Below are positions 4,374 through 5,852 of a DNA stretch of 64,000 nucleotides, one piece after another. A program made the position numbers and the translations under genes. How positions within the stretch are numbered: position 1 is the stretch's first letter; the number at the start of each line of letters is the position of its first letter. Source of the stretch: Escherichia phage bumzen; sequence record MN850635.1; one strand, written 5' to 3'. The notes under the pieces are model-generated. The model did no database searches, was not told the DNA's origin, and worked only from the letters and a program-made list of their open reading frames with translations.

Positions 4374-4451
4374 GGGAGATTGACGGTAATTGGTAAACCT
4401 ATCTCGCTTAGAACGAGATGTTTGAGGGTTCGAATCCCTTGTCTCCTACCA
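4374..4451 (+). tRNA. tRNA-Leu (anticodon TAG), short variable arm
   Basis: Acceptor GGGAGAT/GTCTCCT; D-loop AATTGGTAA; anticodon stem TCTCG/CGAGA, loop CTTAGAA; A73; CCA encoded. Confidence 0.55.
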
Positions 4452-4458
4452 AATTAAT

Positions 4459-4534
4459 GCAGGTGTAGCAAAATGGTTATGCGGCTGACTCTTAATCAGT
4501 AAGACGATGGGTTCAATTCCCTCCACCTGTACCA
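4459..4534 (+). tRNA. tRNA-Lys (anticodon CTT)
   Basis: Acceptor GCAGGTG/CACCTGT; anticodon loop CTCTTAA; T-loop TTCAATT; paralogous to the TTT isoacceptor at 2869. Confidence 0.55.
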
Positions 4535-4540
4535 GACATT

Positions 4541-4616
4541 GGGGATGTAGTTTACATGGTTAAAACATAAGTTTTGCAAACTTAAGTACAGGGTTCAATT
4601 CCCTGCTTCTCCACCA
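4541..4616 (+). tRNA. tRNA-Ala (anticodon TGC)
   Basis: Acceptor GGGGATG/CTTCTCC including a G3-U70 pair; anticodon stem TAAGT/ACTTA, loop TTTGCAA; CCA encoded. Confidence 0.7.
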
Positions 4617-4622
4617 ATTAGT

Positions 4623-4697
4623 GCATCCATAGTTTAAACGGGAAAATTACAGTCTTCCAAACTGAGGTTGAGGGTTCGATTCCCTCTGGATGCTCCA
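4623..4697 (+). tRNA. tRNA-Gly (anticodon TCC)
   Basis: Acceptor GCATCCA/TGGATGC; anticodon loop CTTCCAA; T-arm GAGGG-TTCGATT-CCCTC; U73; CCA encoded. Confidence 0.65.
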
Positions 4698-4703
4698 AAT
4701 AAT

Positions 4704-4780
4704 GCTGCTTTCGTATAATTGGCTATTACACATCCCTTGTAAGGATGGAAATGCAGGTTCGAGTCCTGTGAGCAGCACCA
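4704..4780 (+). tRNA. tRNA-Thr (anticodon TGT)
   Basis: Acceptor GCTGCTT/GAGCAGC; anticodon stem CATCC/GGATG, loop CTTGTAA; T-arm GCAGG-TTCGAGT-CCTGT; CCA encoded. Confidence 0.75.
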
Positions 4781-4781
4781 A

Positions 4782-4873
4782 TTCAGAGGTCAAGTGAAAG
4801 ACCGCTGGTGTCAACTGAAGACCGTAACAAATTCCACGGAGTTGAGTTAGCGGCACAACTTCAGACCTCTTTC
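4782..4873 (+). ncRNA. structured element related to the CAGAAGACC family
   Basis: CAGAGGTC (4783-4790) pairs with GACCTCT (4864-4870); contains CTGAAGACCGTAACAAA. Confidence 0.35.
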
Positions 4874-4875
4874 AT

Positions 4876-4950
4876 ACTCGCTTAGTTTATATGGTAAAAC
4901 ATCACCCTTACAAGATGAAGAAAAAGGTTCAAGTCCTTTAGTGAGTACCA
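4876..4950 (+). tRNA. tRNA-Val (anticodon TAC)
   Basis: Acceptor ACTCGCT/AGTGAGT; D-stem GTTT/AAAC; anticodon loop CTTACAA (one C-A mismatch in stem); CCA encoded. Confidence 0.6.
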
Positions 4951-4951
4951 T

Positions 4952-5029
4952 GTTCCAGTATCCCAATTGGCAGAGGATGCAAGCTCAAACCTTGTATTAG
5001 TGACGGTTCGAATCCGTCTTGGAACACCA
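4952..5029 (+). tRNA. tRNA-Leu (anticodon CAA), short variable arm
   Basis: Acceptor GTTCCAG/TTGGAAC; D-loop CAATTGGCAGA; anticodon stem GCAAG/CTTGT, loop CTCAAAC; A73; CCA encoded. Confidence 0.55.
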
Positions 5030-5034
5030 ATTTT

Positions 5035-5110
5035 GCAGGATTAGTTCAAATGGATAGAGCAACAGTCTACGAAGCTGTTAATAGGGGTTCGAATCCCTTA
5101 TCCTGCGCCA
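5035..5110 (+). tRNA. tRNA-Arg (anticodon ACG)
   Basis: Acceptor GCAGGAT/ATCCTGC; anticodon stem ACAGT/GCTGT, loop CTACGAA; T-arm AGGGG-TTCGAAT-CCCTT; CCA encoded. Confidence 0.65.
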
Positions 5111-5129
5111 ATTTAAAGAGGCTATTTAG

Positions 5130-5687
5130 ATGAGATATTTGAAGTATGCTTCATGGATTTTCCTAGCTTTACTAGAGCCATTTGCAGCAACCCTAGCAGT
5201 CATCTTAGCACCTTTCGTAGTTCCATTCTATAGTGAGAAGAAAGGACACCTACCTTTTGGATTCAGATGGATGGAGACCTATGACAACCCGATTGATGGT
5301 GATAAAGGCCACGTTGAGAGATGGGCTAAGATTAGAAAGATTGGTAAGCTAGGTGTTTATATGCAAAGAGTCGGATGGCTCTGGAGAAACAAAGCTTATA
5401 ACTTCTCTTACCATGTATTAGGAAGAGATGTAAGAGATGTTACTAAGTGGAAAGGTAATATCAACGTAAGTTCTGACCCCGAAGATAATCAGACAGGTTA
5501 TCTCCTAATGTGGAACAGTAATGCTTGGGGATTATTCGCTTTTATCCCATCAATTAAAATCTTTGGTAAACAATTTTACTGGAGAATTTATATTGGATGG
5601 AAACTAAAAAGTGTTGTCCCAGAAGAAAGAGCATTCTCAAGGGAAAGAGTTATGTTGGCATTCTTTATTCATCCACTGAGAAAGTAA
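5130..5687 (+). CDS. hypothetical membrane protein
   Basis: 185 aa ORF after AAAGAGG; hydrophobic N-terminus WIFLALLEPFAATLAVILAPFVVPF; embedded in the tRNA array. Confidence 0.55.
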   Translation: MRYLKYASWIFLALLEPFAATLAVILAPFVVPFYSEKKGHLPFGFRWMETYDNPIDGDKGHVERWAKIRKIGKLGVYMQRVGWLWRNKAYNFSYHVLGRDVRDVTKWKGNINVSSDPEDNQTGYLLMWNSNAWGLFAFIPSIKIFGKQFYWRIYIGWKLKSVVPEERAFSRERVMLAFFIHPLRK

Positions 5688-5695
5688 AGATTTAA

Positions 5696-5771
5696 AGGGG
5701 ATTAGTTTACAAGGTTAAAACCTCGGTCTTTGAAATCGAAGAAGTTGGTTCAATTCCAACATCCCCCGCCA
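5696..5771 (+). tRNA. tRNA-Gln (anticodon TTG)
   Basis: Acceptor AGGGGAT/ATCCCCC (1-72 unpaired); D-stem GTTT/AAAC; anticodon loop CTTTGAA; G73; CCA encoded. Confidence 0.65.
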
Positions 5772-5773
5772 AT

Positions 5774-5852
5774 GCTCCATTACTCCAATTGGCAGAGAGG
5801 CCAGACTTAAAATCTGTGTTATGTATCGGTTCGAATCCGATATGGAGTACCA
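5774..5852 (+). tRNA. tRNA-Leu (anticodon TAA), short variable arm
   Basis: Acceptor GCTCCAT/ATGGAGT; D-loop AATTGGCAGA; anticodon stem CAGA/TCTG, loop CTTAAAA; A73; CCA encoded. Confidence 0.55.

Follow-up and report, generated by a model that had tools for sequence, protein, structure and literature searches.

Is a transfer RNA (tRNA) that carries a leucine anticodon and lacks the long variable arm of its bacterial counterparts still a leucine tRNA (tRNALeu)? The question is raised by the tRNA array of Escherichia phage bumzen (sequence record MN850635.1), of which a stretch of 64,000 nucleotides (nt), referred to as the window, was analysed. Three genes of this array have the anticodons UAG, CAA and UAA and variable loops of only 5-7 nt, and an original prediction made from the sequence had proposed that they are either compact tRNALeu or tRNA mimics that use Leu anticodons. 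We find that all three fold as canonical cloverleaves of the short-armed class (type I), that they are conserved among related phages and belong to two widespread lineages, and that they are probably functional leucine tRNAs charged by the host's leucyl-tRNA synthetase (LeuRS).

Three tRNALeu genes with short variable loops

The window region belongs to a Felixounavirus, with 96-98% identity to Felix O1-like phages. ARAGORN called the three tRNALeu genes at exactly the coordinates and with exactly the anticodons originally predicted (Table 1), and it called no fourth tRNALeu within the window. Each gene also matched the general tRNA family RF00005 of Rfam, with scores of 44.5 bits for tRNALeu(UAG), 44.0 bits for tRNALeu(CAA) and 47.5 bits for tRNALeu(UAA), against a gathering threshold of 29. 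Both automated finders thus retained the Leu anticodons, and neither disclosed a hidden long arm. When arms were delimited by a segmentation script, using the same procedure for the Leu, Ser and Tyr tRNAs, the Leu genes measured 78, 78 and 79 nt with variable loops of 5, 6 and 7 nt, compared with variable regions of 20 and 21 nt in the two tRNASer and 15 nt in the tRNATyr of the same array. The anticipated contrast between compact Leu and long-armed Ser and Tyr tRNAs is therefore borne out, as are the discriminator A73 (at 4448, 5026 and 5849 in the UAG, CAA and UAA genes, respectively) and the Leu-like D loops, which segmentation recovered in all three.

The rest of each molecule is that of an elongator tRNA. 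Each has an acceptor stem of 7 bp, an anticodon stem of 5 bp bearing a 7-nt loop that contains U33 and A37, and a T arm with a 5-bp stem and the loop UUCGAAU (GTTCRA type). The D loop contains AATTGGTA in tRNALeu(UAG) and AATTGGCA in tRNALeu(CAA) and tRNALeu(UAA), the latter two being paralogues. In tRNALeu(UAG) the D stem consists of A10-U25, a C11.C24 mismatch and G12-C23.

Several other ways of drawing these molecules were rejected. Rfam placed tRNALeu(UAG) in a register starting at 4375, in which the acceptor stem has 6 bp and the discriminator is U; we discarded it because in the ARAGORN register 7 pairs form, the discriminator is A73 and a CCA is encoded, as in 23/25 array genes. Minimum free energy folds of the single sequences produced 'extended' anticodon stems of 7-8 bp (UAG, CAA) or a structure that is not a cloverleaf (UAA); they were without covariation support, and the family alignment described below favours over them the canonical cloverleaf, in which the D stem has 3 bp. 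A slipped D stem for tRNALeu(UAG), GGU/ACC, was rejected since a related tRNALeu(UAA) of the same lineage (lineage 2, below) with the same 1-nt insertion cannot form it.

Leucine identity elements and comparison with the host

Leucine identity in E. coli depends on A73, A15:U48, G18G19, A20a and tertiary pairs that join the D loop to the T loop, while the anticodon and the long arm are dispensable (PMC9976931, PMC6614811). A73, U8:A14, A15:U48, G18G19, A20a, U54:A58, G18:U55 and G19:C56 are present in all three phage genes. The type II (long-armed) tRNALeu of E. coli (leuQ/P/V, leuZ, leuX, leuW, leuU) share with them A73, U8:A14, A15:U48 and a T loop of the form UUCRAnU, and G1.U72 occurs in some host isoacceptors too. 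The host D arm, GCG-GAAUUGGUAGA-CGC, combines a 3-bp stem with the 11-nt loop (G/A)AAUUGGUAGA; this is the architecture of phage tRNALeu(CAA) and tRNALeu(UAA), in which G18G19 and A20a are placed equally. The tRNALeu-type D arm is thus exact in these two genes, and tRNALeu(UAG) deviates from it by a 12-nt loop and C11.C24.

The molecules differ in the variable arm, a 13-17-nt stem-loop in E. coli and a 5-7-nt loop in the phage. They also differ in C13 and C20 of the D loop that characterises the lineage of tRNALeu(CAA) and tRNALeu(UAA), and in the anticodon loop, where phage tRNALeu(UAG) has A37 in place of host G37 and phage tRNALeu(CAA) has C38. Set against type II tRNALeu, all three have a Leu anticodon and A73, and none has the long arm (a stem-loop of >10 nt). 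The 3:70 pairs are G-C, U-A and U-A; with no G3:U70, no long arm, and A73 rather than G73, AlaRS and SerRS identity are therefore excluded. Throughout the array, discriminators obey the E. coli identity rules (G73 for Gln, Glu, Asn and Asp; C73 for His; U73 for Gly and Cys). A BLAST search with tRNALeu(CAA) and tRNALeu(UAG) returned no match among 5,426 complete E. coli genomes, on which ground recent capture from the host was rejected.

There are precedents for leucylation without a long arm. E. coli tRNALeu engineered to lack the arm is leucylated as long as it keeps A73 and an intact D/T-loop tertiary structure (Asahara 1993/1998, Larkin 2002, via PMC9976931); those are laboratory constructs, whereas the phage tRNAs are natural, conserved genes. 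Animal mitochondrial tRNALeu(UUR) is type I too, its identity residing in A73 and A14 with no need of a long arm (PMC9976931), but it is served by a dedicated mitochondrial LeuRS, has a degenerate structure and shows no sequence kinship to the phage tRNAs.

Conservation within the Ounavirinae

The three genes are no chance matches and are widely retained among phages. tRNALeu(CAA) matched 291 phage records (254 covering >=80% of the gene), tRNALeu(UAG) matched 311 (304 at that coverage) and tRNALeu(UAA) matched 263 (259). Erwinia phage phiEa21-4, which belongs to a different Ounavirinae genus, carries three tRNALeu of 77-78 nt with anticodons CAA, AAG and UAA. Between the window and phiEa21-4, 7 pairs of tRNALeu(CAA) are changed on both sides and none is broken; in tRNALeu(UAA) 13 pairs are double-changed, and position 27:43 is mismatched in both phages. 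One Felixounavirus variant of tRNALeu(UAG) has all its differences from the window gene in the anticodon stem, which is rewritten with 4/5 pairs kept, and phage Si3 has a swap of a U-A for a C-G pair. Judged by this pattern, the stem changes reflect selection for structure and not decay.

Two further observations concern these relatives. Salmonella phage Si3 has a chimeric tRNALeu(UAA) (5001-5079 of the retrieved locus), its 5' part from tRNALeu(CAA) and its 3' part from tRNALeu(UAA), joined at the shared CCAATTGGCAGAG with the intervening tRNA-Arg, open reading frame (ORF) and tRNA-Gln deleted. The hybrid acceptor stem is paired at 6/7 positions, and the chimera shows that the CAA and UAA paralogues have recombined. 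In phiEa21-4 the tRNALeu reading CUN codons (5531-5608 of the retrieved locus) has the anticodon AAG, with A34, where its Felix-type counterpart has UAG; among bacteria an AAG anticodon is uncommon, and its use would depend on A-to-I editing or on A34 decoding directly.

A large type I family includes tRNALeu(CAA) and tRNALeu(UAA)

tRNALeu(CAA) and tRNALeu(UAA) belong to a large type I tRNALeu family with the D arm CCAAUUGGCAGAG (lineage 1), found on diverse viral contigs and on Actinomycetota chromosomes. Searches used the pattern CCAATTGGCAGAG, then 28-58 nt, then GTTCGA, the gap being wide enough to accept long arms. At least 120 viral contig loci were found. Among the matches listed, 119/122 motif-bearing tRNAs have Leu anticodons (UAA 44, UAG 36, CAA 30, GAG 4, AAG 3, CAG 2), all of them 74-79 nt long, and the loci together hold 185 short tRNALeu (173 unique), with A73 in 184/185 and U48 in 184/185. 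The three D-stem pairs covary around an invariant loop. The viral loci mostly have 30-45% G+C and are therefore not those of actinophages.

A 5-nt variable loop is the family norm, being present in 138/158 representatives chosen at <90% mutual identity after Felixounavirus sequences were removed. Relative to it, the loops of window tRNALeu(CAA) (6 nt) and tRNALeu(UAA) (7 nt) contain insertions of 1-2 nt, and both end in U. On 90 diverse members, a cloverleaf with a 3-bp D stem was 98.1% paired and 19/20 pairs were double-changed; the covariation score was 0.966 compared with 0.229 in shuffles, 0/500 of which scored as high, and slid controls were 34-47% paired. These 90 viral members, none of them from the Ounavirinae, were used to build a covariance model, which gave 77.1 bits to window tRNALeu(CAA), 74.5 bits to tRNALeu(UAA) and 74-83 bits to the three phiEa21-4 genes. 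Every other tRNA in the window scored <=56 bits; among them tRNALeu(UAG), at 55.8 bits, falls outside lineage 1.

tRNALeu(UAG) belongs to a second lineage

tRNALeu(UAG) falls in a second type I lineage with the D arm UGACGG(N)AAUUGGUA, mostly of anticodon UAG and found also in rV5-like and T5-like coliphages. The pattern TGACGG(N)AATTGGTA...GTTCGA was run over viral contigs. Among the matches listed, 115 tRNAs bear the motif: 113/115 have Leu anticodons, 104 are short tRNALeu (92 of those UAG) and 9 are long-armed tRNALeu. The nine are consistent with arm loss from type II ancestors. Window tRNALeu(UAG) fits the lineage in its D-arm motif, short NUUUU/NUUCU loop, A73 and anticodon loop CUUAGAA, and departs from the pattern by an extra D-loop nucleotide and C24.

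The lineage includes Escherichia phage 4MG (Vequintavirinae), with tRNALeu(UAA) of 78 nt and tRNALeu(UAG) of 77 nt, and Escherichia phage TrudiRoth/Bas30, a T5 relative with tRNALeu(UAA) and tRNALeu(UAG) of 77 nt each; TrudiRoth tRNALeu(UAG) has its T arm and anticodon loop in common with the window gene. About 139 records match window tRNALeu(UAG) at 60-80% identity, and among the matches listed these are T5-like, aligning over nearly the full length of the gene with no room for a long arm. T5 itself differs. Its single tRNALeu(UAG) is cluster-encoded like the window genes but is 85 nt long with a 13-nt variable arm. T4 tRNALeu, another coliphage cluster tRNA, is also long-armed. The T5 gene (11625-11709 of the retrieved locus) and the 77-nt, short-armed TrudiRoth gene (5994-6070) both lie near tRNA-Ala(UGC) and tRNA-Ser(GGA), yet their stems are unrelated, a contrast which suggests gene replacement rather than simple deletion.

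The reverse case was also seen: in some phages, tRNAs of normally short-armed isotypes are annotated or predicted with lengths of 83-86 nt or variable regions of 12-24 nt. Such long forms are given for Lys and Asn in 4MG (2956-3039 and 3213-3298 of the locus), for Asn in TrudiRoth (2207-2289), and for Asn, Ile, Thr, Lys and Phe on IMG/VR viral contigs; they may be real arms, introns or mis-calls.

Short-armed tRNALeu in viruses and bacteria

How common is arm loss? In control viral contigs, picked by a pattern unrelated to leucine and including giant-virus contigs, 9/59 tRNALeu (15%) were short-armed and 85% long-armed. The long arm of tRNASer was kept almost always in all sets; that of tRNATyr was kept in lineage-1 loci, and 5/29 tRNATyr were short in the control set.

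The lineage-1 pattern also occurred in at least 120 genome contigs. Among the matches listed, 120 tRNAs bear the motif, of which 105 are tRNALeu 74-78 nt long and 13 are tRNATrp; 90 loci hold a single tRNA, and most of the loci listed lie on Actinomycetota chromosomes (Nocardia, Mycobacterium, Rhodococcus, Corynebacterium, Gordonia, Arthrobacter and others). The Actinomycetota single-gene short-armed tRNALeu have the anticodons UAA, CAA and UAG and are spread over many genera. Several matches from outside this phylum stand in dense arrays of 12-35 tRNAs per 8 kb. On this sampling, short-armed tRNALeu is an ordinary chromosomal gene in one bacterial phylum and elsewhere a feature of phages and arrays. 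The premise of the original prediction, that bacterial tRNALeu is normally type II, accordingly holds for the host (the tRNALeu genes of E. coli K-12 are 85-87 nt and long-armed) and is too sweeping as a general rule, short-armed tRNALeu being common on Actinomycetota chromosomes.

Probable charging and decoding

Taken together, the cloverleaf structure, Leu anticodons, short loops, conservation and lineage membership of the three genes make it likely that they encode functional type I leucine tRNAs charged by host LeuRS. They would be transcribed with the rest of the array, charged by the LeuRS of E. coli or Salmonella, and used in decoding. The annotation of Felix O1 includes no aminoacyl-tRNA synthetase, hence no phage LeuRS, and any charging would therefore fall to host enzymes. 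Bacterial LeuRS ignores the anticodon, and experiments published on E. coli tRNALeu variants show that it can do without the long arm; what it reads is A73 together with the tertiary core and elbow (U8:A14, A15:U48, the position of G18G19, A20a and pairing of the D loop with the T loop). Each of these elements is kept here within a tRNALeu-style D arm (3-bp stem, 11-12-nt loop). Loss of the arm would be tolerated in tRNALeu, and not in tRNASer or tRNATyr, because LeuRS is indifferent to the arm and SerRS and bacterial TyrRS need it. In the related Shigella phage Sf14, Leu was the top tRNAscan-SE isotype for Leu_TAG (67.4), Leu_CAA (49.1) and Leu_TAA (60.2); the anticodon loops of the first two are identical to those of the window and that of Leu_TAA is slightly different, and the paper describing them makes no mention of the variable arm (PMC12482277).

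Codon usage fits this role. Leu codons in the window ORFs are CTT (28%), TTA (26%), CTG (15%), TTG (13%), CTA (12%) and CTC (6%); in E. coli CUG dominates and CUA is rare. The anticodons UAA, CAA and UAG cover codons enriched in the phage: tRNALeu(UAA) would read UUA and UUG, tRNALeu(CAA) would read UUG, and tRNALeu(UAG) would read CUA and probably further CUN codons.

A number of points weigh against this interpretation. The stems have flaws, namely C11.C24 and the 12-nt D loop in tRNALeu(UAG) and C27.U43 in tRNALeu(UAA), and in Rfam the three score 44-47.5 bits, toward the low end of the array. In Felix O1-like records these genes are annotated tRNA-Leu, or by some pipelines 'tRNA-OTHER' or pseudo. 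No leucylation by E. coli LeuRS was obtained with the type I tRNALeu(CAA) of Streptomyces coelicolor, the only direct datum on the matter, and the enzyme is said to charge type II only (PMC6614811). In E. coli LeuRS the C-terminal domain makes contact with the variable arm, and a large variable-arm loop is preferred by the leucine-specific domain (PMC6614811, PMC3643597), so charging of the phage tRNAs may be inefficient. The tRNA genes of the Felixounavirus Bas63 are mostly non-essential in the laboratory (PMC11482910). Lastly, we infer both the expression and the aminoacylation of the three tRNAs from their sequences.

The S. coelicolor tRNA is the closest bacterial precedent (Fan et al. 2019). 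It has a 5-nt variable loop and coexists with type II tRNALeu under a single LeuRS (PMC6614811), whereas the phage host is enterobacterial and has only type II tRNALeu. For charging, its loop must have 5 nt or more, nucleotide 48 among them (PMC6614811). Compared by description, it has C48, and A73 is not an identity element for its synthetase (ScoLeuRS), whereas the phage Leu tRNAs combine U48 with A73; the S. coelicolor tRNA may thus be an unfair model for them.

Alternative explanations

The simplest account of the missing arm would be a tolerated loss, now inherited and exchanged among phage tRNA arrays. Genome economy was rejected as a reason, the ~10 nt saved per gene being negligible in an 86-kb genome. 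A possible adaptive benefit would be to offer no target to arm-cutting nucleases or to run no risk of mis-serylation, and we regard it as a minority possibility, though the best placed of the alternatives, that the arm was lost to escape host tRNA-directed nucleases or mis-charging by SerRS of a fast-evolving long-armed tRNA. Leucine decoding would then be kept while host type II tRNAs are attacked, which is compatible with functional tRNALeu. Phage-host conflict over a variable arm has a precedent: in E. coli tRNATyr this arm is cleaved by Septu and Retron-Eco7 PtuAB, and the tRNATyr of T5 escapes by a different variable loop (PMC13096335), although that case concerns Tyr and not Leu, and an arm that is altered, not removed. 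Type II tRNAs are the ones chosen by eukaryotic Schlafens, and the Schlafens of bacteria serve in defence as effectors that cleave tRNA. Short-armed tRNALeu of two separate lineages have persisted in several coliphage groups unrelated to one another, T5 and TrudiRoth hold type II and type I tRNALeu(UAG), respectively, near the same two tRNA genes, and the anticodon loops of phage Leu tRNAs are also unlike those of the host (PMC12482277). Against this, no known bacterial nuclease targets tRNALeu via its variable arm, nor is any nuclease known that is specific to tRNALeu, the long arm is kept in most tRNALeu of the control viral contigs (85%), lineage 1 is an ordinary chromosomal gene in Actinomycetota, where no such pressure is needed, and Bas63 tRNAs are mostly dispensable on the strains tested (PMC11482910).

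The fuller proposal, that enterobacterial LeuRS, against the published view of it as charging type II only, efficiently charges natural type I tRNAs and that phages keep them as a counter-defence against nucleases or other factors recognising the arm, is somewhat more doubtful still. If true, Ounavirinae, rV5-like and T5-like phages would decode leucine while host tRNALeu is inactivated and would avoid mis-serylation, and an undiscovered bacterial defence targeting tRNALeu or type II tRNAs would be predicted.

The other possibility raised by the original prediction, that the genes are mimics or decoys made not for translation but to bind an RNA-binding protein encoded upstream or host enzymes that modify or cleave tRNA, is improbable. 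A candidate partner exists: directly upstream of the array lies an ORF (195-1610, + strand; 471 aa) with the domains DUF2828 and DUF7788, whose homologue in Felix O1 is annotated 'RNA-binding protein'. Its homologue in Bas63, gp130, is reported to be Ro60-like and to counter a host defence, with the suggestion that some 'tRNAs' near it could be Y RNAs (PMC11482910), and the array tRNAs are mostly non-essential in the laboratory. Yet the acceptor stem of all three genes has 7 bp, the discriminator is A73, CCA is encoded, and the anticodon loop, 7 nt long, contains U33 and A37; their three different Leu anticodons also fit phage codon usage. Decoding would explain why Leu anticodons prevail among members of both lineages (119/122 and 113/115 among the matches listed), and a decoy role would not. 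An Rfam scan of 1500-7500 at E<=1 found no Y RNA or other RNA family, and the acceptor stems and CCA ends of the three are normal. Of the two original proposals, compact tRNAs are thus favoured by the cloverleaf, identity elements, compensatory changes, families and codon fit, and mimics are without positive support.

It is very unlikely that the genes read Leu codons while some other amino acid is attached by another host synthetase. Most synthetases other than LeuRS expect a tRNA of type I shape, E. coli LeuRS reportedly fails on the type I tRNALeu mentioned above (PMC6614811), and the Ile2 and Lys isotype scores of Sf14 tRNALeu(UAG) are close to Leu (PMC12482277). However, the anticodon is disregarded by LeuRS, SerRS and AlaRS alone, and most of the remaining synthetases depend on anticodon bases of their own (PMC9976931; PMC11028032). 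The three tRNAs have neither G3:U70 nor a long arm and keep a tRNALeu-type D arm, A73, A15:U48 and A20a; Leu is the top isotype model for their three Sf14 counterparts (PMC12482277), and Leu codon usage in the phage ORFs is in no way unusual. Equally remote is the idea that they are decaying genes with deleted arms, drifting pseudogenes that gene finders still recognise: the tRNA-OTHER and pseudo labels, the Rfam scores below most neighbours, one stem mismatch each in the UAG and UAA genes and a truly degenerate tRNA-like element nearby (3352-3430) would suit it, but stems are preserved through 7-13 compensatory double substitutions between genera, A73, U48 and the D loop are near-invariant across hundreds of diverse family members, and the genes are kept in >250 genomes.

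The tRNA array and its surroundings

The array is homologous to that of Felix O1 (Table 1). Small ORFs lie between its tRNAs, one of them HNH-like. The tRNATyr used as a long-armed comparator scores below the Rfam general tRNA threshold and weakly matches the tRNA-Sec model. The first tRNA-Met(CAU) (2028-2104, + strand), with the loop CTCATTA, carries a pyrimidine at position 37 and U as its discriminator, and is below the Rfam tRNA gathering score; Met, fMet and Ile2 are its candidate identities.

The tRNA-like element at 3352-3430 (+ strand) scores 33.4 bits in Rfam and is not called by ARAGORN. An acceptor stem of 7 bp, the loop CUUCUAA (Arg UCU), a T arm and a terminal ACCA can be recognised, with ~7 nt in place of the D arm and a 'variable' insert of ~23 nt, and the element stands just upstream of a weak HNH-like ORF (3448-3795). 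In the relative Sf14, a normal tRNA-Arg(UCU) is listed between the Ile and Ser(UGA) tRNAs. The element must be a gene that has degenerated or else an unusual tRNA without a D arm. Upstream of it, in the gap after tRNA-Ile, is a near-consensus sigma-70 promoter (~3114-3145, + strand) with TTGACA, a 17-nt spacer and TATACT.

Table 1. Coordinates in the window of the three tRNALeu genes, their parts, and the array that contains them
Feature	Position	Strand	Description
tRNA-Leu(UAG)	4374..4451	+	75 nt + CCA = 78 nt; type I, lineage 2; ARAGORN, Rfam
D arm of Leu(UAG)	4383..4400	+	ACG-GUAAUUGGUAAA-CCU; 3-position stem, 12-nt loop, G18G19 in AAUUGG
Anticodon TAG of Leu(UAG)	4409..4411	+	loop CTTAGAA
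Variable loop of Leu(UAG)	4419..4423	+	TGTTT, 5 nt; last base U48
tRNA-Leu(CAA)	4952..5029	+	75 nt + CCA = 78 nt; type I, lineage 1; ARAGORN, Rfam
D arm of Leu(CAA)	4961..4977	+	UCC-CAAUUGGCAGA-GGA; 3-bp stem, 11-nt loop
Anticodon CAA of Leu(CAA)	4986..4988	+	loop CTCAAAC
Variable loop of Leu(CAA)	4996..5001	+	ATTAGT, 6 nt; last base U48
tRNA-Leu(UAA)	5774..5852	+	76 nt + CCA = 79 nt; type I, lineage 1; ARAGORN, Rfam
D arm of Leu(UAA)	5783..5799	+	CUC-CAAUUGGCAGA-GAG; 3-bp stem, 11-nt loop
Anticodon TAA of Leu(UAA)	5808..5810	+	loop CTTAAAA
Variable loop of Leu(UAA)	5818..5824	+	GTTATGT, 7 nt; last base U48
tRNA array	1776..7048	+	25 genes, all on + strand; ARAGORN; Rfam; homologous array in Felix O1
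tRNA-Tyr(GUA)	2267..2354	+	long-armed comparator; variable arm 15 nt
tRNA-Ser(UGA)	4029..4118	+	long-armed comparator; variable region 20-21 nt
tRNA-Ser(GCU)	6875..6967	+	long-armed comparator; variable region 20-21 nt

Novelty and implications

Some of this was already known: the genes have been annotated for two decades, and the type I tRNALeu class is known from mitochondria and Streptomyces. The Streptomyces tRNA, the one bacterial exception studied, was described as rare. Short-armed tRNALeu with the D arm of window tRNALeu(CAA) and tRNALeu(UAA) are common as single Actinomycetota genes, far beyond this lone case in the literature. A full-text literature search for short-armed tRNALeu of phages found no description. 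What is new is that the complete tRNALeu set of a major family of coliphages and Salmonella phages is type I, as it is in unrelated coliphage groups; the two broad, widespread lineages, one of them shared with Actinomycetota, are apparently undescribed.

Textbooks and the recent synthetase literature hold bacterial tRNALeu to be long-armed, and the phage set contradicts this generalisation in a model host. A question follows that available strains and standard enzymes would allow to be tested directly, namely whether enterobacterial LeuRS charges a natural type I tRNALeu, and how well. The BASEL phages include members with short-armed tRNALeu, Bas30 and, as a Felixounavirus, Bas63. The genes provide natural compact scaffolds of leucine identity for tRNA engineering and a caution for annotators who flag them 'tRNA-OTHER' or pseudo. 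For the phages themselves, the variable arm of tRNALeu joins the features of tRNAs that may be shaped by phage-host conflict.

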